From the NCBI GenBank assembly GCA_964390805.1, contig CAYMKL010000006.1, positions 7,895-71,894 on the forward strand: a stretch of DNA of 64,000 nucleotides, written 5' to 3'. The position numbers and the translations under genes were made by a program. The notes beneath the pieces were generated by a model. It searched no databases and was not told the origin of the DNA. It saw only the letters and a list, made by a program, of their open reading frames with translations. Below, piece after piece: positions 6,719-28,175 of the stretch. Positions within the stretch are counted from its first letter, which is position 1. Each line of letters starts with the position of its first letter. Origin of the DNA: an uncultured Anaerolineae bacterium (GTDB taxonomy: Bacteria; Chloroflexota; Anaerolineae; VGOG01).

Positions 6719-6735
6719 GTGGGTTGGATTTGCTC

Positions 6736-11439: not shown

Positions 11440-13881
11440 ATGAGTTCCGCTGCCACTCTTCAGGGCCTGCTTCACAATCCTCACGGCCTTGAGCATCCCT
11501 ATGAGCAGGAACCCACGGAACGCTTCCCGCGTCATCCGATGGCTGGTGAACCTGTCGCATTAGGAGTGGCGACCTGGCCAGCCGAGACCGCCGAAGCTGT
11601 GTGGGCCACCTGGCAAAGGGAGTCATCTCCTGAGGAAGGCCGAGCCGAGGGCCGTTGGGAGCGAGACGCCCAAGGTCAAAGCTACTGGCGTATCGAACTG
11701 CCGCCTTTCGGCCATCGAGAGCGAGTCGCCTACCGCTTGCACACCCAGCAAGGCGGACGACGTATATCCACTGAGGACTTCTCCTTTGTCGCTAACGGCT
11801 GGTCTCCTACAAAAGAAGTTGTCCGCTACCGCATCGCTCCCCAACACCTTGTACTCCAGTGCAAAGCGGGCGATCCAACTCTACGGCCTCGCGTGACGAT
11901 ATGCTTCCCTATGGCAAATACATTGCGCCTGCGATTGGCGGGTCTGGATTCGGCTCCTCCGGAGGATGTTGGGCGCCACGCCCCGTTCCGGGTGATGGAA
12001 GAAACGCTCAAGCACATTACCCTGGTTACAGAGAGGATAGAGTGTCGGATTAACCTCCAGCCCCTCCGCCTTGAGGTTTACAAACGGGACGGCACACCCC
12101 TTCTGCTCGAAACGGAGGCCATGGCGTGGCTGATGGGAGAATCGAACCACCCACTGCGAGTGCGTCAGACCTTCAGCAGCCCCCCCAGTGAGGGATTCTA
12201 CGGCTTCGGTGAGCGCTACAATGCCCTCGACCAGAGGGGGAATACCCTGGATGTTCGAGTATTTGACCAGTACAAAGGCCAAGACAAACGGACTTATCTT
12301 CCGATACCCTTTTTCCTTTCATCCCTGGGGCCCTACGGCCTTTACCTGAATACGAATCGCAACGTAGCTTATGACCTGGCTGCATCTCGTCCCGACCGAT
12401 GGTCATTCGACGCCGAACTGGGGCCGGACGCAAACCTGGAGTACCATTTGATCGCTGATGAAGATCCCAAGCACATCATCACTGGCTTCACTGACTTGGT
12501 CGGCAAACCCACGCTGCCGCCCAAATGGGCCTTCGGTCCCTGGATGAGCGGCAATGAATGGAACAGCCAAGCAGTGGTGATGGAGCAGGTGCAGAAAACC
12601 CTGGAGCATCGCATCCCAGCCACAGTGCTGGTCATTGAAGCCTGGAGTGATGAAGCCACCTTCTACATCTGGAATGACGCCCAACATGATCCAAAGCCTG
12701 GAAGCGATGCCTTCTCCAATGATGACTTCGCGTTTCCGCCTGATGGCAAGTGGCCTGATCCCAAAGGCATGATAGATGAATTGCATCGCCTAGGGATCCG
12801 AGTGCTGCTGTGGCAGATTCCGGTCATGAAGAAGCTGGAAGAACCACATCCTCAGCACGATGCGGACGAGGCTTACATGATCAAGAAGGAATACTGCGTC
12901 CATGAGGCTGATGGACGACCCTATCGGGTGCGCCCCTTCTGGTTTAACGGCAGTCTGCTGCTGGACGTTACCAATCCCGACGCGGTGCGCTGGTGGCTGA
13001 GCAAACGCGCCTACCTTCTGGACGACCTGGGAGTGGATGGCTTCAAGACCGACGGGGGGGAACACCTCTGGGGGCGAGACCTCCGCTTTGCCGATGGCCG
13101 GCGGGGAGACGAGCTTTGGAACCTCTACCCAAACTTGTACGCCAATGCTTACTACCGCTTTGTCCAGGACAAGCGACAGGGCGATGGAATCACTTTCAGT
13201 CGAGCAGGGTTCACCGGAGCGCAAGCTCATCCCTGCCACTGGGCTGGAGATGAGGACTCTACTTGGGAGGCTTTCCGCTATTCCGTCCTGGCCGGGCTGA
13301 GCGCGGGCATTTCAGGCATCCCTTTCTGGGGTTGGGACCTGGCCGGTTTCAGCGGAGAAATCCCGTCGGCCGAGCTTTATCTCCGGGCCGCGGCTATGGC
13401 AGTCTTCTGTCCCATCATGCAGTACCACTCAGAGTACAACGAACACCGCAAGCCCTGCCGAGACCGCACCCCCTGGAACATCGCCGAGCGCACTGGTGAG
13501 CCGAGGGTCATCGAACTATATCGCCGCTTCGCCCAACTGCGCATGGAACTGCTGCCCTACATCGAGGCTGAGGCCGCCCACTGCGGGGCTACAGGCGAAC
13601 CTCTGATGCGGCCGCTATTCTTGGATTGGCCCGAAGACCCAGTGGCATGGAAGATTGCCGACCAGTATTGCTTCGGGCGGGCATTGCTGGTGGCTCCGGT
13701 GGTCGAATCCGGCGTTACTCAGCGACACCTTTACCTACCCGCGGGGAAGTGGGAAGACTTCTGGGATGGGACTCGCCTGACCGGTGGCCAATGGATCACA
13801 CGACCGGCTCCACTGGACGTAGTTCCTGTCTACCGCCGCCTGGACGCTTCCTGGCCGGGCCTCTCACTCTGGCCTGGTTGA
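11440..13881 (+). CDS. Glycoside hydrolase family 31 (alpha-glucosidase/alpha-xylosidase, YicI-like)
   Basis: The catalytic region motif VDGFKTDGGE matches the DCFKTDFGE motif of YicI. Length (813 aa) and domain order are typical of GH31. Confidence 0.85.
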   Translation: MSSAATLQGLLHNPHGLEHPYEQEPTERFPRHPMAGEPVALGVATWPAETAEAVWATWQRESSPEEGRAEGRWERDAQGQSYWRIELPPFGHRERVAYRLHTQQGGRRISTEDFSFVANGWSPTKEVVRYRIAPQHLVLQCKAGDPTLRPRVTICFPMANTLRLRLAGLDSAPPEDVGRHAPFRVMEETLKHITLVTERIECRINLQPLRLEVYKRDGTPLLLETEAMAWLMGESNHPLRVRQTFSSPPSEGFYGFGERYNALDQRGNTLDVRVFDQYKGQDKRTYLPIPFFLSSLGPYGLYLNTNRNVAYDLAASRPDRWSFDAELGPDANLEYHLIADEDPKHIITGFTDLVGKPTLPPKWAFGPWMSGNEWNSQAVVMEQVQKTLEHRIPATVLVIEAWSDEATFYIWNDAQHDPKPGSDAFSNDDFAFPPDGKWPDPKGMIDELHRLGIRVLLWQIPVMKKLEEPHPQHDADEAYMIKKEYCVHEADGRPYRVRPFWFNGSLLLDVTNPDAVRWWLSKRAYLLDDLGVDGFKTDGGEHLWGRDLRFADGRRGDELWNLYPNLYANAYYRFVQDKRQGDGITFSRAGFTGAQAHPCHWAGDEDSTWEAFRYSVLAGLSAGISGIPFWGWDLAGFSGEIPSAELYLRAAAMAVFCPIMQYHSEYNEHRKPCRDRTPWNIAERTGEPRVIELYRRFAQLRMELLPYIEAEAAHCGATGEPLMRPLFLDWPEDPVAWKIADQYCFGRALLVAPVVESGVTQRHLYLPAGKWEDFWDGTRLTGGQWITRPAPLDVVPVYRRLDASWPGLSLWPG

Positions 13882-13939
13882 ATCCTGACAATTGCCCCCT
13901 GCCCGGTTTAACACTCATTTTCAGGAGGACCAACGTTTC

Positions 13940-15019
13940 ATGGTCGACCTCTTCCAGCACAGCATCCACGTTATTCTGGCTAATCAAGCCCCCACGGGGG
14001 CCTACATCGCCTCACCCAGTTTTCCCACCTACCACTACTCCTGGTTTCGCGATGGCGCCTTCATCGCCCACGCCATGAACACGGTCGGCCAACACGAAAG
14101 CGCGCGTCGCTTCCACGACTGGGCAGCCCGCACCATCCTGGGCCACGCGGACAAGGCCAAACGAGCTATTGAGAAAGTCGAACGGGGTGAACCCGTGGGC
14201 GAGGATTACTTGCACACGCGCTATACGCCGAACGGAGAGGAAGGGCCGGGTGACTGGCCTAGCTTCCAACTGGACGGATTCGGAACCTGGCTGTGGGCCC
14301 TGGCCGAACACCTCCGCCTGACAGCCGACCCACTCCCCTCCCACTGGCAGCAAGCCGCCCACCTCAGCGGCTCGTATCTGGCTGCCCTCTGGCGTTTCCC
14401 CTGCTTCGACCTCTGGGAAGAGCATCCGGACAAGATCCACCCCTACACCCTGGCGGCCATCTACGCGGGCCTGCGGGCCATCGGTGAGCTGACCGGCAAC
14501 GCGGGCTGGCTTGCCATTGCCGTCGAGATCCGCCGCTTCGTGCTGGAGCACGGCGTGCAGGGCAGCCATCTAGTGAAATATGTGGGAAGCGAGGCTGTTG
14601 ACGCCAGCCTGGTGGGCGTTGCCACCCCCTACCGCCTGCTGGCGCCGGATGATCCAATCATGCACACCACCGTAGCCAGGATCGAGGGCGACCTGCGCCA
14701 TCAAGCTGGAGGGCTGCACCGCTACGCCGATGACACCTACTACGGCGGCGGTGAATGGGTGTTGCTGGCCACCTGGCTGGGCTGGTATTATGTCGAGATT
14801 GGAGAACAAGCCAGGGCGCGAGAGTTGCTGGCCTGGGTGGAAGCCCAGGCTGACGGGGAGGACAACCTCCCAGAACAGATCCCTCAGACCCTCAATGACC
14901 CATCCATGCTTCAGCCCTGGGTCGAGAAGTGGGGCCCCATCGCCCGCCCCCTGCTCTGGTCCCACGCTATGTACCTTATCCTTCTTCACGCTCTTTGTCC
15001 GGCACCCGGACCAACCTGA
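13940..15019 (+). CDS. Glycoside hydrolase family 15-like (glucoamylase/glucodextranase-type (alpha/alpha)6 barrel)
   Basis: YSWFRDGAFIA motif (GH15 WxRDG). RBS GGAGG precedes the ATG at 13940. The ORF track starts at a TTG at 13892. Confidence 0.7.
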   Translation: MVDLFQHSIHVILANQAPTGAYIASPSFPTYHYSWFRDGAFIAHAMNTVGQHESARRFHDWAARTILGHADKAKRAIEKVERGEPVGEDYLHTRYTPNGEEGPGDWPSFQLDGFGTWLWALAEHLRLTADPLPSHWQQAAHLSGSYLAALWRFPCFDLWEEHPDKIHPYTLAAIYAGLRAIGELTGNAGWLAIAVEIRRFVLEHGVQGSHLVKYVGSEAVDASLVGVATPYRLLAPDDPIMHTTVARIEGDLRHQAGGLHRYADDTYYGGGEWVLLATWLGWYYVEIGEQARARELLAWVEAQADGEDNLPEQIPQTLNDPSMLQPWVEKWGPIARPLLWSHAMYLILLHALCPAPGPT

Positions 15020-15090
15020 TGACTCTTTTCACGGGAACCAGAGAAGGAAAAAGCCGCCGACTTTCGCGCTCAGTCGGCGGCTTTGCTTTG
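14252..15090 (+). repeat. Copy 1 of a ~0.83 kb direct duplication (3' two-thirds of the GH15 gene plus its terminator)
   Basis: About 98-99% identical to 25287-26110 over the coding part. Aligned by eye, e.g. cggaacctggctgtgg[g/t]ccctggccgaacacctccgcctgacagccgacc. Confidence 0.85.
15046..15090 (+). terminator. Rho-independent terminator hairpin (GCCGCCGAC-loop-GTCGGCGGC followed by a T-run)
   Basis: aaaaagccgccgactttcgcgctcagtcggcggctttgctttg lies immediately after the GH15 stop. Confidence 0.7.
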
Positions 15091-15193
15091 TCGCTTATTC
15101 ACCTTGCCCTGCCCAGGCGAGAGCCCCGCCAGTGGTACTTACACAACCCCGCGCACTGTGATCAGATAATGACCCCATCCCATTGCGGGGGAG

Positions 15194-16558
15194 TCAGCCA
15201 CACCTTTCTCCCCAATTCGCCGCCACCTGCATGATGTCCACGATGTCTATACGACAGTCGCCATTCAGGTCGTAGCGAGCCTCGTAGCTGGGCGTAGCCG
15301 GGTTGCTGTCAGGATCGGGGTTCTCACATGAGGTACTCCAACGGCTGGCAACGAGCATGATGTCCACAATGTCCACATCGCCATCACCATCCACGTCGGC
15401 AGGGAGGACACAGGCAGGTCGCGTGCTGTGGAAGATGTCCCAGTTGAAAGCGGAGACCTCCTCAGCCCAGGCAGCATGGACCGTGCCGTTGTTGACAAAC
15501 AGCGCCGGGTCGGAAATGCCGAAAACGTCGCTGGCCACTGGCTCGCGGGCAGACCACGTGCTGGTGGCAGCGTATAGCTCGCGTCCCATGATGACGCTGC
15601 CCTCATCCCAGAGGAGAAACCCACTGCCGGCCGAGCTGATGTCCAGCGCCGGGAACTTGGCGCTCTCCAACGTGCCTGACACGTCGTCGGCTTGCGCCCA
15701 ATCGCCTGGTTTCCCTGACACATGGTAGATGGCCGTGTTGAAACCGAGCGCTTCCTGCCAGACGATGTGCACCGTGTTGTCTGGTGCCACAGCGAGGGAA
15801 GGGACCGTCGAGGTCTCATCTGGCGTGGCGGAAATGTTCTCGGGAAGGGACCAGGAACCACCACTCAACTGCGTATGCCAGATCTCGTTAAGGCCAGTGT
15901 CCGCGTCCGGACTCTGCCAGGCCAGGTGAAGGATGCCGTCGTAGCCAATGGCCAGTGCCGGTGCACTGCCCGTCCCATTGGGAATGGGGAACGTTGACCA
16001 CGCGCTCCCATCGCTCGATTGCCCGTGGTAGAGAGCCGTTGCCCCGCCCGTGTTGTCCGCCCAGATGATGTGCAGGCTGTTGCCGGGCACGAAGGCGATG
16101 ACAGGCGAAGAGGAGACGCCAGAGGTGGCAGAGACATTCACCGGCAATGTCCACCCCCCACCATCCCAGCGAGCATAGAAGACATCGAACACACCCCCAA
16201 TCTCGGAGACGAAGGCCATGTGCACTCCGTCGCTGCTATCGAGGGCCAACGACGGGCTGTCGCCCAGCACCGCCTGGACCGGCGTCGTCCACGAGCCACT
16301 GCTGCCGCTGGTGTAGTAGATGCTCTCTTCCTCTTCCCACACCATGTACACGGTTCCGCTCCCCGTGACCACCAAGCTTGGCGCCCTGGAATCAGTGGCG
16401 GTGCTAGCCAAGTTCTCAGGTGTGGCCCATTCCTGCAGTGCGCTTGCGACCGTAGAAGGCACTGTGGTAGGCAAGGGGGCATCCCCAGCGGCGGCTGAGG
16501 ATGCCCCGATCACGATAGCACAGCAAAGAGTAATGGCGAGAAGGGATACTCGATGCAT
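15194..16558 (-). CDS. Secreted beta-propeller-like repeat protein with a C-terminal type I dockerin domain
   Basis: Signal peptide. Six repeats of about 40 aa (SGxSWTxP...DGxxHxAW, BNR/sialidase-like). The C-terminus has two dockerin calcium-binding repeats (DVDGDGDVDIVDIMLVA and DLNGDCRIDIVDIMQVA). Confidence 0.7.
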   Translation of the reverse strand: MHRVSLLAITLCCAIVIGASSAAAGDAPLPTTVPSTVASALQEWATPENLASTATDSRAPSLVVTGSGTVYMVWEEEESIYYTSGSSGSWTTPVQAVLGDSPSLALDSSDGVHMAFVSEIGGVFDVFYARWDGGGWTLPVNVSATSGVSSSPVIAFVPGNSLHIIWADNTGGATALYHGQSSDGSAWSTFPIPNGTGSAPALAIGYDGILHLAWQSPDADTGLNEIWHTQLSGGSWSLPENISATPDETSTVPSLAVAPDNTVHIVWQEALGFNTAIYHVSGKPGDWAQADDVSGTLESAKFPALDISSAGSGFLLWDEGSVIMGRELYAATSTWSAREPVASDVFGISDPALFVNNGTVHAAWAEEVSAFNWDIFHSTRPACVLPADVDGDGDVDIVDIMLVASRWSTSCENPDPDSNPATPSYEARYDLNGDCRIDIVDIMQVAANWGERCG

Positions 16559-18159
16559 CAGTCACTCTCGAAGACCTTGATGCGATGGGCTACCAGGGTG
16601 CCATCGTCTTGGAGCAAGGCCGTGACGCGAGCCAGGGCGCCGAGTTCGACCTCGCCATTTTGGGTATCTATCGCCGTGTCCGCCGTGACCTCGATCGAAA
16701 CATTGCTGCCATCTTCAGTAGTGATGGTCCAGATTCCGATGTGATTCACGGTCCCCGGCAATTCCGCGATGATGCCGCGAATCCTCACTGGCTCAAGGCT
16801 GGGGTCTTTGACCTCGATCTCGGTGGCGCGCACAATCCGCGGCCCTACCTTCGTACCCTTGACCTCAGCCAGCAGTCCCACTCGCGGAGTGGCGCCTGTG
16901 ATAATAGTGGCATGGGTGATGAGCACGGTCACGCCACCGACAATCCACACATCATCCTCAATGCTCTCTATACGGCCCCTGAATTCGACTTCAGGGTACT
17001 TGACCACGATAAGCTTGGCTAGCACGGAGCGGTTGTCCAGGAGGAAGCCCTGCACCTTCACGTGGGCGCCCACTCGTAGCTCGCCCTCAATACGGGTGTG
17101 GTCGTTGATGAACACATCAACCAACGCGGCCGCGGAATCGGTGGTTGTCCAGACGTTCACCACGATCTTTCTTGGAGGGTTTCCTTCCATCTCTACGATG
17201 GTACCACGGAACTCCACCTCATGTGGATGATCTCCATCCCGAATGTGTATCTTCAAAGCCAGGATAGTGCCGTCCTCCCGGCGGACAGCGGTTACTTTCG
17301 CCCAATCCCCCACTTCCGGCCTGACTTCGGGTGGTCTGATCTCGGTATTCTCATTGACCAAGAAGGTGACAGCCGTGGAGTTGGTGGTTGCCACCGTCCA
17401 CTCGCCGATCAACCCGGCCGGCAGGTCGGTGATCCTGCCTTCGAAGCGTACCCATTCATGCCCGTGGTCCTCCAGCACTTCGATCTCGGTGGCCAGGATG
17501 CTGCCGTTCTCTTGAAGGACGCCCTTGCCCTTTATCTCCTGGCCCACTTCCAAGTCGCCAAACGTAATGGGGTTACCATCGGCGTCCTTGATCTCCGTGT
17601 TCTCGTCCGTGACCACGGTGAGAGTGCGAGATCCCATCTGCACCGTCAGAGTTGGAAGTGGTGTAACAGCGACCTCGTCGGACTTGGCAATGATGATGCC
17701 ACGGAAACCAACTTGAGCATCGTCGGTCTGCTTCACGTGGATCTTGCGGGCCAGGACACTGCCATCGTTCTGGAGAACGCCCTCTACTTCGACCCGCTGA
17801 CCCACGGCCAGATCAGCGATGGTGCCTTCCTCTCGCTCATGTCCGATGCGGATGCGCGTGTTGGCGTTGATGTGAACGGTCCACGTGGTCGGCGTGACGG
17901 GCGTCAGGGATGCTGCATCGTTTACGGTCTCGACGGTGATGGTGCCAGTAACCGAGTCAGTTCCAGAGGAGATGCTTCTGATGATGCCTCTGAACTCCAC
18001 CTCTTCTGGCTCGTCGGTTTCAGAGGGAGTTGCCACTTGCGGCAACTCCACCAATTCCTCTACGGCAACACTGCCGCTAGCCCCGGCAGTCGAGAACGAG
18101 CCGAGGATCGTGATGAGCATTAAGGCGAAAATCAGTAGTAGATTTGTCTTTCTAGTCAT
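16558..18159 (-). CDS. Secreted/anchored protein with six tandem DUF5666-like repeats of about 85 aa
   Basis: N-terminal TM/signal segment. Repeated units VEFRG(I/T)I...NTxI...G.L.VG..V.V.G.L..DGS.LA..I.V. RBS AAAGGAG precedes the ATG at 18159, which is internal to the 18279 ORF. Confidence 0.65.
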   Translation of the reverse strand: MTRKTNLLLIFALMLITILGSFSTAGASGSVAVEELVELPQVATPSETDEPEEVEFRGIIRSISSGTDSVTGTITVETVNDAASLTPVTPTTWTVHINANTRIRIGHEREEGTIADLAVGQRVEVEGVLQNDGSVLARKIHVKQTDDAQVGFRGIIIAKSDEVAVTPLPTLTVQMGSRTLTVVTDENTEIKDADGNPITFGDLEVGQEIKGKGVLQENGSILATEIEVLEDHGHEWVRFEGRITDLPAGLIGEWTVATTNSTAVTFLVNENTEIRPPEVRPEVGDWAKVTAVRREDGTILALKIHIRDGDHPHEVEFRGTIVEMEGNPPRKIVVNVWTTTDSAAALVDVFINDHTRIEGELRVGAHVKVQGFLLDNRSVLAKLIVVKYPEVEFRGRIESIEDDVWIVGGVTVLITHATIITGATPRVGLLAEVKGTKVGPRIVRATEIEVKDPSLEPVRIRGIIAELPGTVNHIGIWTITTEDGSNVSIEVTADTAIDTQNGEVELGALARVTALLQDDGTLVAHRIKVFESD

Positions 18160-18590
18160 TGGTATTCTCCTTTTCGTCATGGTTTGTTGGTGCGGGCAGG
18201 TCTCATCGTTGCTCCCTCTAGGTCTAGGCAGTGGCCCGCCGCTGTCTACGGTAGCTGGTCCCACCGATGACCGCCACAACCTACACCACGATCAGAGCGC
18301 CGACATGCCCACCATTCTATCATGTTTGCATATGCTTTGCTTGAAGTTTCCCTTGTGCTTACACTGCGTCTTTTCTACGGTTGCCTGCTGCTCGGCCAGG
18401 TGGCGAGAAACGCTGCGTCAGACATACAAAGAGATAGAACGATAGGCTCATTAGGTTATGCCCTTGAGGAGGACGAGAAATACATACCCAGAGCATCAGC
18501 GTAAACCCAGGCTCCGAGCCCCGTCCCCGGGGCGGCCCGAGGACGGGCCTTCGAGCATCAAGTTTACGGAAATGATACCCAGAGGTCCCC

Positions 18591-18618
18591 TTGCCTCTCC
18601 CTGCTACCTGTGGTATAC
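18591..18618 (+). promoter_or_regulatory. Candidate promoter (TTGCCT-16 nt-TGTGGTATACT extended -10) for the ECF sigma gene
   Basis: -35-like TTGCCT at 18591-18596 and an extended -10 TGtggTATACT at 18608-18618, about 90 nt upstream of the start at 18706. Confidence 0.25.
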
Positions 18619-18705
18619 TTCAGGTGCAGTAAAGACCCCTGACCCTTTGTCAGCCGCGTCCCATTCGTACGTATCGAACAACCCTTATTATCTAGCCATT
18701 GTGCC

Positions 18706-19257
18706 ATGTCTGATACCGACCGGAAACTAATCCTCGCCTGTCGCCGGAGCGACGAGCGCGCCTGGGAGACCCTCATTGGTCGCTACGAGCGCCTCGTCTT
18801 CTCCATCGCCCGCCGTCATGGGCTCTCTGCGGACGACGCTGCCGACGTCACGCAGAAGGTGTTCATCATCCTGTTGCAAAGCATGGACCGCCTGCCGGAC
18901 GACGTCAACCTGGGCGGCTGGTTGACCACCGTGACCCGCCGTCACACCTGGCGCGCCATGACTCGGCTAGGGCGAGAGTTGCCCGGCGAAAAGGAAAACA
19001 TCGCCGAGAGCGCCATCCTGCTCGGCTGCCAAGCCCCTGACCCCATTGACCGCTGGGAGACATTGCAGGCAGTACACGAGACCCTGAACCGCCTGGGCGA
19101 GCGCTGCCGGCAACTCCTGCTGGCCCTGTACTTCGACCCGAGCGAGCCTTCTTATGCTGAGGTAGCCTGCCGGCTGAACATGCCTGTGGGCAGCATCGGC
19201 CCCACCCGCGCCCGCTGCCTGATCAAGCTCAAGGCCCTACTCGAAGAGGAAAGCTGA
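18706..19257 (+). CDS. ECF-type RNA polymerase sigma factor (sigma-70 regions 2 and 4)
   Basis: Region 2 (WETLIGRYERLVFSIARRHGLSADDAADVTQKVFIIL) and region 4 HTH (SYAEVACRLNMPVGSIGPTRARCLIKL). Confidence 0.85.
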   Translation: MSDTDRKLILACRRSDERAWETLIGRYERLVFSIARRHGLSADDAADVTQKVFIILLQSMDRLPDDVNLGGWLTTVTRRHTWRAMTRLGRELPGEKENIAESAILLGCQAPDPIDRWETLQAVHETLNRLGERCRQLLLALYFDPSEPSYAEVACRLNMPVGSIGPTRARCLIKLKALLEEES

Positions 19258-19327
19258 GATGTATTTCTTGTCCCCTGTAAAAGCATAACTAAGTGACAAT
19301 ACCTGCACAATCTCTAGGAGGAGAGAG

Positions 19328-19954
19328 ATGGTTGCACGGACACGGATTCCATTTGAAACCCTGGCCGACCTGGTGGACGGTCGCCTCTCGGAAAGCGAAG
19401 CGGTCGAAGTGAGGCGCCGGCTGGCCAACGCCGACTCACGCACCCTGGAGGACCTGGCCTGGCTGGAAGCCCTGACCTCCATCTGCCAGACGATGTCCCT
19501 CGAAGTCCCACCAGAGCAGGTGCGCACAGCTCTGTGCGCCCACTTCCGCCGTTGGGCCGAGAGTCGCCGACAGCCTGGCCTTTTTGAGCGGCTGGTGGCC
19601 CAACTGACCTTCGACAGCCGGCTCCAGCCGGCTCTGGTGGGCGTTCGAAGTAGTCCGTCCGAGCCCGGCCAACTGCTCTACACCACCGACCGGATGGACA
19701 TCGAACTTCACCTCATGCCATCAGGGCCAGACCAAGTACGCATCCTGGGTCAGGCTTTGCCCCGTGACCCAGAACTGGATGTGGCTGATTGTCCAGTGCA
19801 ATTGCTGGCTGGGGAGCGAGAGATCGGCCTGACCAGCACCAACGAACTGGGCGAGTTTAGTTTCGAAGCTATCCCTGGCAGTGACTACACGCTAGTCCTG
19901 GTGAGTGAAGAGGGGGAGATCGAGCTTGAGTGCGTTGACCTCACCACTGGCTAA
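19328..19954 (+). CDS. Putative anti-sigma factor, cytoplasmic, with no TM segment
   Basis: Sits immediately downstream of the ECF sigma gene. Its N-terminus resembles anti-sigma N-domains (ETLADLVDGRLSESEAVEVRRRL). The call rests mainly on position and context. Confidence 0.45.
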   Translation: MVARTRIPFETLADLVDGRLSESEAVEVRRRLANADSRTLEDLAWLEALTSICQTMSLEVPPEQVRTALCAHFRRWAESRRQPGLFERLVAQLTFDSRLQPALVGVRSSPSEPGQLLYTTDRMDIELHLMPSGPDQVRILGQALPRDPELDVADCPVQLLAGEREIGLTSTNELGEFSFEAIPGSDYTLVLVSEEGEIELECVDLTTG

Positions 19955-22781
19955 GCTGCTTGACAGTCTCCTGGCTCAACCGGACACTGAGGCCAGGGTC
20001 GCTTTCCTACGCCAACGGGGGCAGTACGACACTGAGACGCTGGAAGCATTAGCCAAGGCTGGCGATGCTTTGGTGCGGGATGATCCCAGCCGTGGCACCC
20101 TGTTGGCAGAGGTTGTGGTCGAGCTGGCTGAGGCGCTGCCAGCTCCTTTAGCTGCTGCCCAGGCCCGTTACCTCCGCGCCCAGGCCCACGCCCTAGCTGG
20201 CGAGTGGACTCAAGCCCTGCCCCTCATTACTGCCGCTCGTGAGGGCTTCCTGGCTGCTGGCCGTCTGCAGGAGGCCATCCGTACCCGCGTGGGCGAGATG
20301 CACGCCCTCGCCGGCCTGGGCCGCTACCCAGAGGCACTGGCTGCTGGAGAGCGAGCCCTCGCTGAGACAGCAGATCCCTTTATAACCGCCCTAGTGGTTC
20401 AAAACCAAGGGCTGATCTACAATGTAATGGGACGCTACAGCGATGCCCTGGCCGCCTTCGACCGTGCTGCCGCCGGCTATGCCGCATTGGATCAAAGCGA
20501 GCGGCTCGGCCACGTCCACAACAACCGCGGCGTGACGCTCCTCAGTTTGGGCCGAGGGGACGAGACTGTCCAGGCCTTCCAGGAAGCAGAGGCCATCTTT
20601 GCTGCTAGGGGCCTAACCCTCCTCACCGCTCAAGCCCAGGCCAATCGCGGCGCAGCCCTATCGCTGATGGGCGACCATCGCACCGCGCTGGAAGCCTTCG
20701 AGACAGCACGGTGGACCTTTGAAGCACTGGAGCCAAGCGTCGAGCGTGGCACTTTGGACCTGGACACCGCCACCGCGTATCTGGCTCTCAATCTCTATCC
20801 GGAGGCACTGGCTACCTGCGACGAGGCATTGGCTAGCTTCCGTGCCGCCTCCATGCCATATGAGCAAGGCCAAGCTCTGGTCCGTCGGGCGGCGGCCCTG
20901 ACCGCCTTGGGGCAGCCAGCCGCAGCCGAAACAGCCCTGGCGGAGGCGGAAACCATCTTCCGCGAGCTGGGCAACGAACCCTGGCTGGCCATCGTCTGGC
21001 TGGAACAGGCCGCCCTTTGGGAGTCAATGGAGCGCGGCTATGAAGCCTTAACTGTTGCCCGGAAAACTCTGGCCCTCTGCGAACGCCTGGGCCAGGCTGT
21101 GCAAGGCACATACGCCCACCTGCGTCTGGCCGACCTGCTGGCCAAGCAGGACCACGAGACTGCACTGGCTCACTTGCAGAAAGCCCTGACCCAGGCCGAG
21201 AAGTTGGCCTTGCCCCAACTGCGCTATCGGGCCCACGCCCGACTGGGCCGGCTGTATCGGCTCCAGGAGCGAACTGACCAGGCCCTGTACCATCTAACGC
21301 AGGCAATAGAGGAAATCGAGCGCCTGCGGGCCACGCTGCCCCAAGAGACGCTGCGTACCGCCTTTCTGCGGGACAAACTGGCCCCTTACGAGAACCTGAT
21401 ACAGTTGTACCTGGCCATCGGTGATGAGAACGGATTGCGACAGGCCTTCGCCGTGGCCGAGCGAGCCCGGTCGAGAGCCCTATTGGACCTGCTGGCCGTT
21501 AGCATTGATGCCCGGCTCCAGGCCGCTGAAGCTGACGAGGCCCAGGCGACTTTGCGGCAGCAGCTGGAGGCAATGCGGGCCGACCTGGACCTGATTTACA
21601 ACGAGCTGTTGGCTGCCGATACCGAGACCGCAAAGGACGATCAGCGCGGCCCGCGCCTGGCCCGGCTCCGAGGTCAGGCGCACCAGCACGAGCAGGAGAT
21701 CACCCGCCTGCGCCTGCGCCTGGAGGCCGTTGGCCCTGGTTACCTCGACGTGGCTCGCCCGCTCTCGCTGGAAGCGATCCAGGCCACGCTGCCCCAACGG
21801 GCACGCCTGCTGGCTTACTACATCGTCGGCGACGAACTACTGGCCTTCGTCGTCAGCCCTCGTTCAGACATGAGGGTTTACCGTCGGCTGACCCCATCCA
21901 GCGAACTGGCGCCAGCCCTGGACCGGCTGGGGATGCAGTGGAATCGCTTTCGCCTCGGTGACGAGTACGTGGCCCGCCATCGGGCGGCCTTGGAGCAGAG
22001 CGCCCATGCTGCCCTGGCCGATCTCTACGACCAGTTGGTGCGTCCACTGGCCAATGACCTGGATGGCGAGCAACTGATCATCGTCCCCTATGGACCACTG
22101 CATGGGGTTCCCTTCCATGCCTTGTACGACGGCCAGAGCTATCTCATCGAGCGCTACGAGATTTCCTATGCTACCAGCGCCACCGTCATGGCGCGCTGCC
22201 AGGCCCGGCCGCATCAGCCGCTGGAACAGGCGCTAGTGGTCGGCGTCCCCGATGCCGGCATCCCTTACGTCGCCCAGGAGGCAGAGACCGTGGCAGCCCT
22301 GCTCCCCCAGGCGCAGCTTCTGCAGGGGAAAGAAGCTACCATACCTGCGCTGCGGGCCACGGCGCCGGGTCGGGATCTCCTTCACCTGGCCTGTCATGGG
22401 CTGTTCCGGACCGATAGCCCTCTTTTCTCCGCTCTACGGCTGGGGGACGGCTGGTTGACCGTGGCCGAGGCAGCCGAGTTGGAGCTGCAGGCCGGGTTGG
22501 TGACTCTCAGCGCTTGTGAATCCGGCCGCAGTCGGGTAGTAGAAGGCGATGAATTACTGGGATTGACGCGAGCCTTTCTGGGGAGTGGGGCAGCGTCGCT
22601 GATCGTCAGCCTGTGGCTGGTCAACGACGCCAGCACTGCCCGCCTGATGGAGGAATTCTATCGCTGTTTGCAGGCCGGTCAATCCAAAGCCGCGGCCCTC
22701 CGGGCCGCCCAACGGGCACTGCTGGCCACCAAGAGCCATCCTTATTACTGGGCCCCGTTCGTACTGGTGGGACAGAGTTGA
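19905..22781 (+). CDS. TPR-repeat protein with a C-terminal CHAT (caspase-like) protease domain
   Basis: About 600 aa of TPR-like helical repeats. The C-terminal CHAT motif has a His/Cys dyad (LHLACHGLF...LVTLSACESGRS). The 5' end overlaps the previous gene by 50 nt; the true start is uncertain (GTG or TTG). Confidence 0.8.
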   Translation: MKRGRSSLSALTSPLAKLLDSLLAQPDTEARVAFLRQRGQYDTETLEALAKAGDALVRDDPSRGTLLAEVVVELAEALPAPLAAAQARYLRAQAHALAGEWTQALPLITAAREGFLAAGRLQEAIRTRVGEMHALAGLGRYPEALAAGERALAETADPFITALVVQNQGLIYNVMGRYSDALAAFDRAAAGYAALDQSERLGHVHNNRGVTLLSLGRGDETVQAFQEAEAIFAARGLTLLTAQAQANRGAALSLMGDHRTALEAFETARWTFEALEPSVERGTLDLDTATAYLALNLYPEALATCDEALASFRAASMPYEQGQALVRRAAALTALGQPAAAETALAEAETIFRELGNEPWLAIVWLEQAALWESMERGYEALTVARKTLALCERLGQAVQGTYAHLRLADLLAKQDHETALAHLQKALTQAEKLALPQLRYRAHARLGRLYRLQERTDQALYHLTQAIEEIERLRATLPQETLRTAFLRDKLAPYENLIQLYLAIGDENGLRQAFAVAERARSRALLDLLAVSIDARLQAAEADEAQATLRQQLEAMRADLDLIYNELLAADTETAKDDQRGPRLARLRGQAHQHEQEITRLRLRLEAVGPGYLDVARPLSLEAIQATLPQRARLLAYYIVGDELLAFVVSPRSDMRVYRRLTPSSELAPALDRLGMQWNRFRLGDEYVARHRAALEQSAHAALADLYDQLVRPLANDLDGEQLIIVPYGPLHGVPFHALYDGQSYLIERYEISYATSATVMARCQARPHQPLEQALVVGVPDAGIPYVAQEAETVAALLPQAQLLQGKEATIPALRATAPGRDLLHLACHGLFRTDSPLFSALRLGDGWLTVAEAAELELQAGLVTLSACESGRSRVVEGDELLGLTRAFLGSGAASLIVSLWLVNDASTARLMEEFYRCLQAGQSKAAALRAAQRALLATKSHPYYWAPFVLVGQS

Positions 22782-22787
22782 GTTGAT

Positions 22788-24968
22788 GTGTGGGAGGTGA
22801 TGATCGTGTTTCAACGTAGTAAGTTACTGCAGGTGCTTGGTATTCTGCTGGCGCTGCTGGCGTTGCTGGGGACAGCTTCCTACGCTCAGGATGAGAACGA
22901 TGACAGCCCCAAGGACCTCAAATACGAGGCCATACGTGTCCTAGAAGGCCATATCGCGCCGGAGTATACTTCGCTTGACGATCCCATCAGGCAGGCCATT
23001 GAGCACATCAGGAAGAGTCTGGAGGACGAGCTTTGGGAGACCGATTGGAGCTTAACCAGCAAGGGCAAGGCGGTCTTCGACGAAGAGAAGGCGGCTGTTG
23101 AGATATTAATGAAGATTCGGGAGGCAGCCGATGCCGATCCCGTGATAACGAACAGCGCCCTGGCGGCCATCCGGTATCTAACTACAGCCGACCGGGCCCT
23201 GGCCTACACAGCCATCGAGCAGGCTATCGCGAGGGCCCAGGCAGCCGGCTGCTATGCCACAGACAGTTATGACAGCAAGTGCCAAAGGCTCTTGCACAGG
23301 ATTGCCCAGGCCCAGAGGGAAATGGCCAAGGCCGAGGAGGAGATGGCCAACGACAGGTATGACACGGCCATTGATCACTACAAGAAGGCCTGGCAACATG
23401 TCCAGTTTGATGAGCGTCACTTATATGGTTTTGTGAAGAGCATGCCCGATCCTGATCCTGACGGGCAGTTCATCGGCATCTGGGTAGTAGTAAGCAGCTC
23501 CGGCGTTGAAGCCACCTTTGTGGCCGAGGCCAGCACCGACTTTGAAGAGAATCACGGGCCGCTGGAAGTACGAGCCTATGTCAAGGTCACGTACTTCGTT
23601 CTAGATGGCATCAACTATGCTGACAAGATCGAGACCAAGAAGTACTACGTGTCGGACCAAGTGATAGCTCGCTTGAAACCCGAGGCGGACGTAGCAGGCA
23701 TCCATAGCGACTATAACGCATTGACTCTAGACCATCTGCTGGATCGGATCTACCTGCTAAGCCTGCAGCCCGGAACCAATGAGCGAGATACCGTGGACAC
23801 CATGCGCAACGACTCGCGTTTCGAATACGCCGAGCCCAACCTATTTGGAGAGATGCCGGAGGCCAACCCTTATCAGATCGGTGCGTGGGCCGGCTATGAT
23901 CCCGCGCCAGCCCTGGCTCAGTACGCCAACGAACACCTGGCCCTGCCCCTGGCCCGCGAATTGAGCACCGGCAGCGGCGTGGTCGTGGCCGTGTTGGATA
24001 CCGGCGTCCAACTGAACCATCCCACCCTGTCGCCACATCTGGTCACCGGCTACGACTTCGTGGACGACGACATCGTACCAGCCGATGAAGGGAATGGCCT
24101 CGACGATGACAGCGATGACCTGATTGACGAGGCCGTTGGACACGGTACCCACGTATCTGGCATCGTCCTCCTGGTGACCTCCGAGAGCCAGATCATGCCC
24201 CTGAGGGTTCTGAATAGCGACGGGATAGGAAATGTTTTCCAACTAGCCGAGGCCATAATCTACGCCGCCGACCATGGCGCCAAAGTGATCAACATGAGCC
24301 TGGGAACTAACCTTCAATCCGGCGTGCTGGCGGAAGCGGTTAACTATGCCCGTGCGGCAGGGGTGATGGTCGTGGCTGCAGCCGGCAACCTGAATAGCAC
24401 CGAACCTCAGTACCCTGCCGGCGACGAAGGGGTGATTGCCGTAGCTGCCCTGGACGAGGAGCGGCTGAAGACCAGTTTCTCCAATTATGGATCATGGGTT
24501 GACCTGTCCGCGCCGGGAGAGAGCATCTACAGCACCTACCCGATTGATGGTTATGGCTGGTGGAGCGGCACCTCGATGGCCACGCCCTTTGTCAGTGGAC
24601 AGATCGCCCTGCTGCGCTCGCTGGCTCCCTGGCTGACCCTGGCCCAAATCGAAGGGCAGTTAGCGTCCAAGGTCCACGGGTTGGATGAACTCAACCCGGA
24701 CTACGCTGGACAACTTGGGTCTGGCGAGCCGGACGTGGCCGCCAGCCTGGGCTGCCACTGGGCGGATGTACAGCCAGACGCCACCCACGACTTGCTGAAC
24801 AACACCTGCGACGACGACGTGGACATCGCTGACGTGATGGCCGTGGCAGCCCAGTGGGGCCAACCACAGCCACCGGGCAGTGTCTACGACAACGATCACG
24901 ATGGGGACATAGATATCGTGGATATCCAACAAGTGGCCAACCGTTGGGGCTGGAGACGCCAGCCGTAG
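22788..24968 (+). CDS. Secreted subtilisin-like serine protease (peptidase S8) with a C-terminal dockerin
   Basis: Signal peptide. Catalytic triad motifs VAVLDTGV, GHGTHVSG and GTSMATPFVSG. C-terminal dockerin repeats DDDVDIADVMAVAAQW and DHDGDIDIVDIQQVANRW. Confidence 0.85.
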   Translation: MWEVMIVFQRSKLLQVLGILLALLALLGTASYAQDENDDSPKDLKYEAIRVLEGHIAPEYTSLDDPIRQAIEHIRKSLEDELWETDWSLTSKGKAVFDEEKAAVEILMKIREAADADPVITNSALAAIRYLTTADRALAYTAIEQAIARAQAAGCYATDSYDSKCQRLLHRIAQAQREMAKAEEEMANDRYDTAIDHYKKAWQHVQFDERHLYGFVKSMPDPDPDGQFIGIWVVVSSSGVEATFVAEASTDFEENHGPLEVRAYVKVTYFVLDGINYADKIETKKYYVSDQVIARLKPEADVAGIHSDYNALTLDHLLDRIYLLSLQPGTNERDTVDTMRNDSRFEYAEPNLFGEMPEANPYQIGAWAGYDPAPALAQYANEHLALPLARELSTGSGVVVAVLDTGVQLNHPTLSPHLVTGYDFVDDDIVPADEGNGLDDDSDDLIDEAVGHGTHVSGIVLLVTSESQIMPLRVLNSDGIGNVFQLAEAIIYAADHGAKVINMSLGTNLQSGVLAEAVNYARAAGVMVVAAAGNLNSTEPQYPAGDEGVIAVAALDEERLKTSFSNYGSWVDLSAPGESIYSTYPIDGYGWWSGTSMATPFVSGQIALLRSLAPWLTLAQIEGQLASKVHGLDELNPDYAGQLGSGEPDVAASLGCHWADVQPDATHDLLNNTCDDDVDIADVMAVAAQWGQPQPPGSVYDNDHDGDIDIVDIQQVANRWGWRRQP

Positions 24969-25145
24969 CTTGATTAGAGCCGGCGAGATGCCCCGTCTTC
25001 ACTAGGACGCTGGAGAGAGATGCCGTACCAGTTGGTTAGACCCATCACGATAGAGAGGCAGGTTCCCATAACAGCGACATATCGGACGTAGGCCGCAATC
25101 GCCCAATAGTGGGAGACCTATGTCCAGCACCGGTCACTCCCAAAT

Positions 25146-25186
25146 AAAGCCGCCGACTGAGCGCAACAGTCGGCGGCTTTGTTTTG
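25146..25186 (+). terminator. Rho-independent terminator hairpin of the GCCGCCGAC family
   Basis: aaagccgccgactgagcgcaacagtcggcggctttgttttg lies after the S8 protease gene. It is nearly the reverse complement of the 15046 hairpin. Confidence 0.65.
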
Positions 25187-25262
25187 ACCCTTGCTCACTT
25201 CAATTGGAATTGTGCTCTGAGGCAAGCCCCTGGGCGATGACTACCTACACACCCACTACACC

Positions 25263-26060
25263 GTGGACGGTCACAAAGTCACTGACGACTGGCCCAACTT
25301 CCAACTGGACGGCTTCGGAACCTGGCTGTGGTCCCTGGCCGAACACCTCCGCCTGACAGCCGACCCACTCCCCTCCCACTGGCAGCAAGCCGCCCACCTC
25401 AGCGGCTCGTATCTGGCTGCCCTCTGGCGTTTCCCCTGCTTCGACCTCTGGGAAGAGCATCCGGACAAGATCCACCCCTACACCCTGGCGGCCATCTACG
25501 CGGGCCTGCGGGCCATCGGTGAGCTGACCGGCAACGCGGGCTGGCTTGCCATTGCCGTCGAGATCCGCCGCTTCGTGCTGGAGCACGGCGTGCAGGGCAG
25601 CCATCTAGTGAAATATGTGGGAAGCGAGGCTGTTGACGCCAGCCTGGTGGGCGTTGCCACCCCCTACCGCCTGCTGGCGCCGGATGATCCAATCATGCAC
25701 ACCACCGTAGCCAGGATCGAGGGCGACCTGCGCCATCAAGCTGGAGGGCTGCACCGCTACGCCGATGACACCTACTACGGCGGCGGTGAATGGGTGTTGC
25801 TGGCCACCTGGCTGGGCTGGTATTATGTCGAGATTGGAGAACAAGCCAGGGCGCGAGAGTTGCTGGCCTGGGTGGAAGCCCAGGCTGACGGGGAGGACAA
25901 CCTCCCAGAACAGATCCCTCAGACCCTCAATGACCCATCCATGCTTCAGCCCTGGGTCGAGAAGTGGGGCCCCATCGCCCGCCCCCTGCTCTGGTCCCAC
26001 GCCATGTACGTCATCCTCCTACATGCTCTTCATCTAGCACCCAAAAGAAAGGGAACCTGA
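25263..26060 (+). pseudogene. Truncated duplicate of the GH15 gene, lacking the 5' third
   Basis: Its 265-aa ORF is nearly identical to residues 120-360 of the GH15 at 13940-15019. There is no upstream catalytic N-terminal region and no RBS. Confidence 0.7.
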
Positions 26061-26110
26061 GAAGGAAAAAGCCGCCGATGAGTGCAAGAGTCGGCGGCTT
26101 GGTTTTGTTT
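25287..26110 (+). repeat. Copy 2 of the ~0.83 kb direct duplication (GH15 3' portion plus terminator)
   Basis: See copy 1 at 14252-15090. Confidence 0.85.
26066..26110 (+). terminator. Rho-independent terminator hairpin of the GCCGCCGAC family
   Basis: gaaggaaaaagccgccgatgagtgcaagagtcggcggcttggttttg. The upstream flank is the same as at the 15046 copy. Confidence 0.6.
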
Positions 26111-26126
26111 CTCGTTCACCACGAAA

Positions 26127-27323
26127 TCATCGCATGCACCAAGAGGAGATGTTAACTGCCCCCTCACAGAACACAACCTGGCTGGTGGTGGTTGAGTCAT
26201 CGGCCACAGAGATAATATCAAAGACCTGACACGGCTCGCTGCTACCAGTGGCAAACTGCCTGACCTCGGCCCGCTTGCCCTTGAAATAGACAGTGTTGCC
26301 AATGAGACTGACGGAGTGCCCTCCCGTCCCTTCTATCCGGACCCGCCCCCCAAGGCCATAAACGATTCCTTTCCACGTAGCGTCCTTACCATCACATTCT
26401 ATGACGTCCCTATTGCATTTGGGGGGTATGCCAGTTTGCTTATAGGAAAAGAGCAGAACGTTATCACTGGAATAAGGAGACAGATACGCACCATCACTAC
26501 GCACATCAATCATCCCCTGCTCAGCTACGATGGTCACCGTTCCCGTCAGGGCGGAATGTGGTAGTTTAACATCCCCACTCTCCACATAGTAGAGACCGCT
26601 AGGAATATGCCCATTGACAACACCAAATTCGTCCAAGCAATCCGAAGGGGGGCACCACTCGATGTGATAGTACTTCCCTTCCTGTTGAGCGCGACTGGCC
26701 ATCTCTCCACCTGGCCGGTAATCCTCGATACGGATCTCTATGGGAGGCTGTGGCGCAACCGACACTCTGCGCGGGTTATCTCCAGATGGGTTGAATCTCA
26801 TGTTCACTGGAAGATCATATGTGGTGACGTATTCCAATGTCCCCGTTATCTCGGCAGTATCTGCCTTGATCTTTATGTCAGTATTGGTATGAACATCACC
26901 CACGAGGCTCACGTCGGTGACATCAATGTCAATGCCCCACGTGGTGCAATCAGGGCTATTGGCCCAGATGACATAGCCATTGCCAGTACCGCCTTCGCCG
27001 AATACTGGTCCACGGCTAGTTATAGTCACGCTAATGGGCCAGATGCCATTGACTGAAGTGGGGACGGTGATGACTGTGGTAACCCCAGTGGTGATCATAC
27101 TCGAATAGAAACTGGGGTTATGGAGCAACTGCCCGATGGCATACTCCACCCCGGCATCTGATGCATACTGTTCCTTCATGGCCTCTTCGATGCCGCGTGT
27201 GGCGCGGAGGTTGACAGTGAGGTGGGAGAGGAAAGGAGGAATAAGGAGGCTGCTCACAGCCAGAACCATGAGGGCCAGAACAAGAACCCGTCCCTCTTGG
27301 CCAGAGGCTCTTGGATTCGACAT
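26127..27323 (-). CDS. PilX-like type IV pilus minor pilin/assembly protein with a long C-terminal extension
   Basis: The N-terminal hydrophobic segment is followed by a PilX-N-like stretch (LRATRGIEEAMKEQYASDAGVEYAIGQLL). It is the last gene of the pilV-pilW-pilX-like operon. Confidence 0.5.
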   Translation of the reverse strand: MSNPRASGQEGRVLVLALMVLAVSSLLIPPFLSHLTVNLRATRGIEEAMKEQYASDAGVEYAIGQLLHNPSFYSSMITTGVTTVITVPTSVNGIWPISVTITSRGPVFGEGGTGNGYVIWANSPDCTTWGIDIDVTDVSLVGDVHTNTDIKIKADTAEITGTLEYVTTYDLPVNMRFNPSGDNPRRVSVAPQPPIEIRIEDYRPGGEMASRAQQEGKYYHIEWCPPSDCLDEFGVVNGHIPSGLYYVESGDVKLPHSALTGTVTIVAEQGMIDVRSDGAYLSPYSSDNVLLFSYKQTGIPPKCNRDVIECDGKDATWKGIVYGLGGRVRIEGTGGHSVSLIGNTVYFKGKRAEVRQFATGSSEPCQVFDIISVADDSTTTSQVVFCEGAVNISSWCMR

Positions 27324-27345
27324 ATACGGTCCGTCCCCTCCCTGC

Positions 27346-27807: not shown

Positions 27808-28175
27808 TATCGGTCTACCTTATACTCTTGAATCGTGAACATGGGCTTGTCATGGTGAAACACTGTGACGGTTATGAGCTGGACGCCGGTATAGACGGTT
27901 GTCGCAGAAATCCGAGCAGTATGTCCTGTGGATGAGGAAATGGTTGGGGTGTAGAAATCCGTGTCATCAATGAAAGCAGTTTCTTTCATATACTCCAGTT
28001 GGGAGCGGGCCATGTTCTCTGCACCCACTCGCTGGCGAGCCAGGCACGTCGCCAGGCTGCCTGTGGAAAAGGCTGAAACGAAGGCAGTCAGCGCAACGGC
28101 CAGGATGCTAACCGCACACAGCACCTCGACCAGGCTTGTCCCCCTCTGACCCGCAGGAACAGCTAACTTCACCAC
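27807..28175 (-). CDS. Prepilin-type minor pilin (PilV-like)
   Basis: Contains GTSLVEVLCAVSILAVAL, the prepilin motif. Its stop overlaps the next start (ATGA). Confidence 0.6.
   Translation of the reverse strand: MVKLAVPAGQRGTSLVEVLCAVSILAVALTAFVSAFSTGSLATCLARQRVGAENMARSQLEYMKETAFIDDTDFYTPTISSSTGHTARISATTVYTGVQLITVTVFHHDKPMFTIQEYKVDR

Follow-up and report, generated by a model that had tools for sequence, protein, structure and literature searches.

In the genome of an uncultured Anaerolineae bacterium, part of a gene for a glycoside hydrolase of family 15 (GH15) is present twice in direct orientation, the two copies being separated by a module of about 10 kb. We analysed this repeat and its surroundings in a stretch of 64,000 nt (assembly GCA_964390805.1, contig CAYMKL010000006.1, positions 7,895-71,894, forward strand), hereafter called the window, to which all coordinates refer. 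An initial annotation of the window had interpreted the repeat as a recent duplication linked to the acquisition of the module. This interpretation was not supported: the two copies have flanks of different lineages (L016-like in the one, L019-like in the other) and their own 3' ends and hairpins, and for that reason the identical core that they share is best read, from sequence comparison, as a gene-conversion patch between old paralogs and not as a fresh duplication.

The repeat was found by comparing the window with itself (blastn) and was subsequently aligned base by base at a constant offset of 11,035. Relatives were sought in GTDB genomes and JGI metagenomes, which yielded 52 GH15 loci (loci and contigs are denoted by L numbers); the relatives compared are other species, with about 80-90% nucleotide identity to the window. 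Independent contigs were taken from Logan assemblies (k=31), and a hairpin element, here called T, was scored with a covariance model (model R1; 13 training copies). Both GH15 copies are called as genes on the 92,765-bp NCBI contig (P0121, which is copy 1, and P0024). The backbone consists of genes for a sugar-binding protein, a GH31 enzyme and the GH15 enzyme, followed by a convergent rlmI gene, and the features of the locus are the following.

11440-13881, plus strand: GH31 alpha-glucosidase gene, AIMA/Lmo2446-like N-terminus (Pfam; 80-86% amino acid identity in L016, L019, L020, L021 and L026)
13940-15019, plus strand: intact GH15 gene, copy 1, 359 aa, P0121 (Pfam GH15 8.5e-27; PDB 5z3a/5z3d family, E 3e-80; gene call on the NCBI contig)
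14184-14297, plus strand: diverged 5' flank of copy 1, 30 mismatches in 114 (74% identity) against 25219-25332, L016-like (A) allele type
14298-14967, plus strand: identical core in copy 1, 670 bp, 0 mismatches against 25333-26002, with the DLWEE and LPEQ motifs
14968-15019, plus strand: own 3' coding tail of copy 1, 17 mismatches in 52 (67% identity) against the tail of copy 2, followed by indels
15033-15104, plus strand: T1, bidirectional terminator, stem AAAGCCGCCGACT / AGTCGGCGGCTTT (82 bits with model R1; fold -29 kcal/mol, z -3.1)
15105-15168, plus strand: R1, conserved flank after T (alignment with L020, L044, L024 and L057)
25129-25200, plus strand: T2 (74.7 bits with model R1; fold -36 kcal/mol, z -6.8)
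25219-26060, plus strand: copy 2, GH15 fragment cut at its 5' side, L019-like (B): flank 25219-25332, core 25333-26002, tail 26003-26060
26051-26121, plus strand: T3, terminator common to the fragment and orf_26127 (77.3 bits with model R1; fold z -4.1)
26127-28175, minus strand: pilin-like operon, the third cargo block, encoding a 398/422-aa protein of a rare family and two proteins with a prepilin-type N-methylation motif (81% nucleotide identity to L066-L068)
28333-28363, no strand assigned: T4*, a diverged hairpin, now the terminator on the rlmI side, at the position of the upstream T of the L066 operon (no detection with model R1)
28408-29607, minus strand: gene for an RlmI-like 23S rRNA m5C methyltransferase, the conserved right-hand backbone (NCBIfam PRK15128 1e-141; 89% amino acid identity in L016 and L020)

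The two GH15 copies

By blastn, 14192-15103 aligns with 25227-26120 at 92.3% identity over 913 columns with 5 gaps, in agreement with the initial annotation as to the direct orientation of the copies and, essentially, their place. Comparison with relatives sets the left edge of copy 2 at 25218|25219, a sharp breakpoint equivalent to position 14184 in copy 1, so that the homology extends over 14184-15104 and 25219-26121; one repeat plus the module forms a unit of 11,035 bp. The identity of 98-99% originally given for the coding part is roughly right for 14252-15019, where we found 97.3%, but the pairwise alignment that had been proposed as a check reveals a mosaic: a perfect core lies between segments of 74% and 67% identity. 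Were mismatches spread at a uniform rate, 670 successive positions without any would occur with a probability of about 1.5e-17, and the uniform divergence along the repeat that is expected of a simple segmental duplication is not seen in these adjacent segments (74%, 100% and 67%). What is found instead fits a conversion tract, with an abrupt change in identity, diverged homologous sequence on both sides and breaks of k=31 contigs at 25362 and 25973. The core holds the DLWEE and LPEQ motifs, which we take to be the sites of the two catalytic glutamates. Both copies possess a complete, natural GH15 3' end of their own, and each is terminated by a separate GC-rich hairpin; the two hairpins are alike, and the stop codon of copy 2 is situated within the left arm of T3.

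The flanks of the core point to two lineages. Upstream of the core, copy 1 is nearest to L016 (87-89%; 71-79% to the others), whereas the flank of copy 2 is nearest to L019 (92-93% depending on the alignment, the first 36 nt past the breakpoint being identical) and has 74-75% identity to L016. As informative sites we used the positions where L016 (A) departs from a consensus built on five B-type genes. Outside the core, copy 1 has 28 A-like and 11 B-like sites, while the shared core counts 6 A and 38 B (2 and 26 in its 5' third), a switch from A to B that is significant (Fisher p = 1e-7) and makes tract and flanks incongruent. In the 114 nt of the 5' flank, all 13 informative sites of copy 2 are of type B (0 A), compared to 10 A and 3 B in copy 1. 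Common descent from one resident allele, as a simple duplication entails, is not reflected in these L016-like and L019-like flanks. The C-terminal tails likewise differ in type (...CPAPGPT versus ...APKRKGT), and both types occur on full-length GH15 genes of relatives. Judged by these sites, copy 1 appears to be an A-B-A mosaic in which the B patch coincides with the identity to copy 2, which argues for a conversion patch rather than a single crossover or a fresh duplication. Copy 2 is a paralog, older or of foreign origin, that carries a homogenised patch. Conversion from the fragment to the intact gene is the favoured direction, though not a proven one.

Independent assemblies cover the right-hand part of this arrangement. 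L055 (SRR24302423) is identical to 18522-25362 and ends 30 nt past the last distinguishing base at 25332; coming from the right, L064 (SRR24302423) and L065 (SRR24302424) end at 25973, 30 nt before the distinguishing base at 26003. Consequently, reads contain two of the junctions, that of the S8 protease gene with T2 and the fragment and that of the fragment with T3 and the pilin-like operon, as well as the two edges of the tract. Contig breaks 30 nt inside the core edges occur in assemblies of three SRA runs in all; no paper was found under the accessions of these runs. The breaks show shared 31-mers at the edges of the core, not identity of all 670 bp.

Copy 1 is a complete single-domain GH15 protein (Pfam positions 6-333; residues 40-396 of PDB 5z3d, E 3e-80) and a homolog of isomaltose glucohydrolase, with an end-to-end alignment to the Kribbella enzyme (5z3a/5z3d). 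The isomaltose glucohydrolase of Kribbella flavida belongs to GH15 (PDB 5z3a, 7c24; PMC12446779); copy 1 aligns over residues 3-353 (E 3e-80) and has the same single-domain architecture, with genes for an AIMA-like GH31 enzyme and a sugar-binding protein as neighbours. The difference is that the activity of copy 1 is a predicted one and that copy 2 lacks the first ~100 residues. Copy 2 covers Pfam GH15 positions 109-334 of 427 only and thus is no complete family member; without its first ~100 residues, it cannot form a complete barrel. A stop codon precedes its frame, which is open only from 25221 and has a strong terminator hairpin 20 nt upstream, and the first start, a GTG at 25263, has no Shine-Dalgarno-like sequence, confirming the earlier description of a 5'-truncated copy without ribosome-binding site.

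Variation in the 5' third of GH15 was also observed among the relatives. The first third of the gene (window 13930-14300) is multi-allelic when compared with L016, L019-L022 and L054, with at least three types at 68-79% nucleotide identity; the remainder of GH15 and the upstream GH31 gene are 82-93% identical among those relatives. Metagenome contigs break in or near this third (L004 at 14264, L008 at 14183, L038 near 14190). In L053 (~1540-1580, equivalent to window ~14194), GH15 is split by a 31-nt tandem duplication, CCTGGGTGACGACTACCTGCACACTCGCTAT, causing a frameshift only about 10 nt from the equivalent of the truncation point of copy 2. Two candidates for further cases were rejected. 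P0036 looked like a second truncated copy, as its first residue is that of copy 2, but its contig, L053, turned out to carry a full-length, frameshifted GH15 gene after GH31. L008 and L011 of UBA3071 overlap by 358 nt (98.6%) with a break near the truncation point; they are collinear with the single-copy contigs L027 and L028 at >99% and represent strain heterogeneity.

A variable interval bounded by hairpins

Between GH15 and rlmI, relatives differ strongly. L021 and L054 have an empty site: a single hairpin comes after GH15, and the 3' end of rlmI is reached within 65-92 bp. L016 carries 3.7 kb here, encoding two unknown proteins and a TPR protein, and L020 carries 3.4 kb with genes for a PocR-type kinase, a response regulator and a HEAT protein. 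The interval of the window measures 13.3 kb (15105-28381) and contains three cargo blocks, each with T at its end. With the same flanking orthologs around a site that in relatives is empty or holds about 3.5 kb of other cargo, the 13.3 kb is thus a filled variable hotspot. The initial annotation was right in calling the intervening DNA accessory, but it had missed that the variable region does not end at 26110 and reaches 28381. The comparison of related genomes that it had suggested showed that the 10-kb module is not at this site in relatives and that the block of sigma factor, CHAT and S8 genes lies elsewhere. No second GH15 piece and no module gene were found at the GH15-rlmI site of relatives, nor a module gene beside GH15 in the 54 fetched GH15-bearing loci. 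The window has no tRNA gene, and the features of an integrase-type island are lacking. No recombinase is encoded among the island genes or elsewhere in the 64 kb, and tblastn with the recombinase of L066 gave no match.

What the initial annotation had missed is a hairpin element at every junction. T is a conserved unit of 72 nt, AGGAACCnGAGAAnGAAAA-AGCCGCCGACT-N9-AGTCGGCGGCT-TTGTTTTGTCnCTTGTTCAC, of which the window has exactly three copies (T1, T2 and T3), all at block boundaries of this one locus; model R1 detected none in L061, L027 and L039. In relatives, T follows GH15 at seven loci, stands beside rlmI in L016, and borders both sides of the pilin-like operon in L066-L068 and of the module in L057, where the left T (1731-1802, 44.8 bits) is a covariance-model match from outside the training set. 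With at least five kinds of partners on its left and at least six on its right, T behaves as a palindromic unit at unrelated intergenic sites, and rearrangement breakpoints therefore cluster at it. Ordinary homologous recombination between copies of T, with or without R1, is sufficient to explain this clustering.

The right flank of T2, TTCACTTCAA (to 25204), equals the ancestral junction with the rlmI stop codon, into which it leads in L021, L054 and L016; the next 14 nt (25205-25218) are filler. R1, 65-90 nt long, follows T ahead of different genes in the window, L020, L044, L024 and L057, and its consensus ends in a promoter-like TTGCGC-N17-TAAAAT, a motif that in the window is degenerate and aimed into the 3' end of the dockerin gene. 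In the T stem, 7 of the 13 pairs are invariant in 13 copies, and the GC core is without covariation. The 9-nt loop (15063-15071, 25159-25167, 26080-26088) occurs in two reverse-complementary states, TTCGCGCTC-like and GAGCGCGAA-like, which differ even between the orthologous GH15-T-rlmI sites of L021 and L054 while the flanks keep their orientation; such a small inversion of the loop is what recombination or template switching inside the stem would be expected to produce. The T pattern had no match in IMG/VR viral contigs and Rfam nothing in the locus. A role of T as DNA-uptake sequence was dropped, there being only 3 copies in 64 kb.

Three unrelated open reading frames (ORFs) end in the left arm of T, namely those of a serine recombinase (L066 2290-3558, minus strand), a Zn-ribbon protein (L057 1652-1759) and GH15 copy 2 (26038-26060), and so have a common T-encoded C-terminal tail and stop codon (CC-TGA-GAAGG).

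The first block, bounded by T1-R1 and T2, is the dockerin-to-S8 module:

15194-16558, minus strand: dockerin / FG-GAP-like secreted protein, left end of the module (Pfam Dockerin_1 1.1e-08; remnant in L057 1795-1909)
16558-18279, minus strand: protein with six DUF5666 repeats (Pfam 2.1e-47; 72% amino acid identity to L057)
18706-19257, plus strand: ECF-type sigma factor (Pfam, NCBIfam TIGR02937)
19328-19954, plus strand: 208-aa partner of the sigma factor, a putative anti-sigma factor by position only (74% amino acid identity in L057 and L061; no family match)
19905-22781, plus strand: TPR-CHAT protease-like protein (Pfam CHAT 4.9e-72; orthologs at 80-86% amino acid identity)
22788-24968, plus strand: S8 subtilase with fervidolysin-like prodomain, right end of the module (Pfam)

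This gene content is as initially annotated for the DUF5666, sigma factor, partner, TPR-CHAT and S8 genes; one dockerin protein was detected (15194-16558), not two. The operon of sigma factor, partner, CHAT and S8 genes recurs with 74-87% amino acid identity at unrelated loci in L057 and L061, the 208-aa partner always lying between the sigma and CHAT genes, and the block from dockerin to S8 has about 80-83% nucleotide identity to a relative at another locus. In L057 the DUF5666 gene is likewise present, and the dockerin gene survives as a remnant with ~1 kb deleted; the whole of 15205-24962 is therefore one unit. The window shows the order T1-R1-module-T2, and L057 shows T-module-HD-T-R1. PADLOC gave only generic subtilase and weak IetS matches for S8, none for CHAT and no known defence system. 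The operon adjoins BREX-like genes (DUF499/BrxC-PglY, PglZ) in L057 (12187-17491) and AbiEii, NurA and PIN genes in L061 (1-4698); these neighbourhoods are defence-island-like. The Logan contigs L055 and L056 both begin exactly at 18522, in a GC-rich palindromic stretch upstream of the sigma gene, which suggests another graph branch or a coverage drop.

The pilin-like operon has a promoter-like site at 28314-28286. In L067, a ROK-family regulator gene (2-735, corresponding to window 6731-7464 at 90.6% nucleotide identity) lies beside this operon with T at the junction, while in the window it is about 20 kb away from it; this is another rearrangement.

Proposed history and competing explanations

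We propose that blocks ending in T accumulated in a hotspot, that one of them brought a foreign GH15 fragment of lineage B, and that a conversion of 670 bp came later, an account to which we assign a probability of roughly 60% as a whole. The order of events, as we infer it, would start from GH15-T-rlmI. Entry of the module at T would have given GH15-T1-R1-module-T2-rlmI, in which T2 still carries TTCACTTCAA. DNA with the arrangement GH15(B)-T3-pilin operon-T4-rlmI would then have come in from a relative and recombined homologously at its right end, in rlmI. For its left end, broken in GH15 at residue ~98, we assume an illegitimate joining at 25218|25219 that left 14 nt of filler, the whole being a one-sided recombination anchored in rlmI, or homology-facilitated illegitimate recombination. 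The fragment, the 3' two-thirds of a GH15 gene of the other allelic lineage, would thus have arrived together with T3 and the pilin-like operon. A later conversion between fragment and resident gene may have homogenised the 670 bp, the fragment probably being the donor. At present, a perfect direct repeat of 670 bp could allow RecA-type deletion or amplification of the 11,035-bp unit, and an in-frame hybrid GH15 would remain after deletion; the prediction of the initial annotation that the module can be lost or amplified through homologous recombination is reasonable for such a repeat.

Several points weigh against this account. No genome was found that combines a full-length B-type GH15 gene, T and the pilin-like operon, and the donor arrangement is hypothetical. 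Lineage A consists of one sequence (L016), and the contrast between A and B is informative in the 5' third of the core only. The density of private substitutions in both copies did not separate donor from recipient, and it is conceivable that the fragment was instead converted by an intact gene that was an A/B recombinant by then. The exact identity may in part be a product of the assembler, a collapsed repeat edge having been walked twice, so that 100% is an upper bound. The left junction (tail of copy 1, T1 and dockerin gene) is present in the NCBI contig only; exact-protein look-ups with both GH15 copies (three start choices, P0024, P0121) found no match on record. As the relatives are other species, at the distance given above, an empty site does not date the insertion.

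Among the other explanations, a different resolution of the assembly graph survives best, unlikely as we consider it. The chromosome would then carry a single hybrid GH15 gene (A-type 5' part, core, B-type tail) followed by T3 and the pilin-like operon, next to an 11,035-bp circle with the module and the fragment, or a mixture of forms would exist from which the contig was made by loop resolution. A two-copy exact repeat of 670 bp is longer than short-read k-mers, the Logan contigs break at both of its edges, and the in- and out-edges permit both pairings, which are the products of recombination between the repeats. Yet no gene for replication, partition or mobilisation lies on the putative circle, the deposited contig passes through both copies, and no hybrid GH15 protein was found in the protein collection, where cluster 1 contains only P0024 and P0121 and other matches reach at most 84%.

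It is quite doubtful, secondly, that T is a site-specific recombination site, at which a trans-acting recombinase, such as the large serine recombinase of L066/L067, moves operon-sized cassettes bounded by T, the GH15 fragment being a by-product. T would then be the crossover site of cassette shuffling in Anaerolineae, in which circles are excised and re-inserted at another T by a serine recombinase or a hairpin-specific mechanism, building T1-module-T2-fragment-T3-operon-T4*; for this version, too, we see little chance. The presence of T at every junction with many different partners, the conservation of its stem as sequence rather than by covariation, and the orders T1-R1-module-T2 and T-module-HD-T-R1, which resemble a circular permutation, speak in its favour, as does the large serine recombinase gene of L066, which ends in a copy of T. 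However, a recombinase abuts T only in L066/L067, the 64-kb window encodes none and IMG/VR viral contigs contain no T. Moreover, T looks like an ordinary bidirectional intrinsic terminator, the left edge of the fragment lies 18 nt beyond T and looks illegitimate, and the 72-160 nt of homology in T plus R1 are enough for ordinary homologous recombination.

That the 3' 0.83 kb of the resident GH15 gene was simply duplicated when the 10-kb module inserted, with little divergence since, is very improbable. Direct orientation, the 97.3% identity over 14252-15019 and the truncation of the second copy are compatible with it; against it stand the homology that continues past the identical tract at only 67-74%, the flank of the fragment, whose identity is 92-93% to L019 and 74% to copy 1, the distinct complete 3' ends and hairpins found on full-length genes elsewhere, and the rejection of uniform divergence (P about 1.5e-17). 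Least probable of all is that the perfect identity is a consensus or polishing artefact masking cores that differ by a few percent: graph assemblers do pop bubbles and reuse one repeat edge, and the k=31 breaks prove only 25332 and 26003 as last distinguishing bases, but a few percent would still contrast with the 26-33% divergence of the flanks, and the case for conversion therefore stands even then.

Relation to known systems and significance

Gene conversion between bacterial paralogs is known from tufA/tufB in Salmonella and from silent cassettes such as pilE/pilS. The present case shares with these a sharp tract of identity in diverged homologs and a non-expressed partial copy as the likely donor to an expressed gene; it differs in having one fragment only, no sign of programmed variation, a catabolic enzyme as its subject and a direction that is favoured rather than proven. 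REP/BIME (repetitive extragenic palindromic sequences and bacterial interspersed mosaic elements) and the Correia elements of Neisseria are dispersed intergenic palindromic elements. T resembles them as a conserved palindrome of ~72 nt at unrelated intergenic sites that also serves as terminator, in some cases has a promoter-like flank (R1) behind it and is tied to rearrangement breakpoints, but its density within the 64 kb is low (3 copies, at one locus) and it has no linked transposase, of RAYT type or other. Integrons carry cassette arrays with attC hairpins, and here too cargo units form an array in which each is closed by a conserved imperfect hairpin. Unlike in integrons, there is no IntI or other integrase, the blocks are multi-gene, on both strands and with their own promoters (the promoter-like site at 28314-28286 among them), and no attC core motifs were seen.

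Orphan 3' cassettes exist downstream of rhs/cdiA genes. Comparable displaced effector/immunity arrays occur in type VI secretion system loci of Vibrio (PMC5361080). The likeness is that a full-length gene is followed by a 5'-truncated copy in the same orientation, with a shared stretch and another 3' end, and that the interval would be lost, and the orphan end fused to the gene, by recombination. The window differs in that its ends vary by ~17-19 residues, that no toxin/immunity pair is present and that a 10-kb block of unrelated operons intervenes; no immunity-like ORF follows copy 2, T3 coming directly and then the convergent orf_26127. Homology-facilitated illegitimate recombination is documented (PMC3240628), and the proposed event would resemble it in having one end anchored by homology, presumably in rlmI, and the other joined without homology (25218|25219); here it is deduced from the product alone, no donor arrangement having been found.

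Outside the locus, the window has an Rfam PYLIS_3 match (the pyrrolysine insertion sequence of mttB) at 54041-54140 on the plus strand, with 38.6 bits, just above the gathering score (38). The match falls within one member of a pair of paralogous segments (53620-54426 and 56686-57492, 70% identical over 0.8 kb) and may mark a pair of genes of the MttB superfamily instead of true Pyl decoding. Other direct repeats are 47732-47877 / 47927-48072 (146 bp, 79%, spaced 195 bp) and 41784-41835 / 43971-44022 (52 bp, 94%, 2.2 kb apart). Palindromic stretches of 32-60 bp with 84-94% complementarity (36892-36950, 37611-37664, 56051-56109 and 57671-57702) are unrelated to T.

The locus is an instructive and essentially ordinary example of bacterial genome plasticity. 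It combines a hotspot of variation with a gene remnant, a patch of conversion and a dispersed palindrome acting as terminator, all of them of known kinds, and this combination is well documented here. Repeat identity fails here as a date, for an old or foreign fragment can carry a freshly homogenised patch. For work with metagenome-assembled genomes, a 670-bp exact repeat leaves two equally valid resolutions of the graph, an integrated island or a deletion plus circle. The fragment probably rewrote about 62% of a working enzyme gene, the putative catalytic motifs included, and such conversion is a concrete route of allele exchange in uncultured bacteria. The presence of T at each rearrangement junction, in several species and loci, offers a testable lead on the reshuffling of operon-sized blocks in Anaerolineae.

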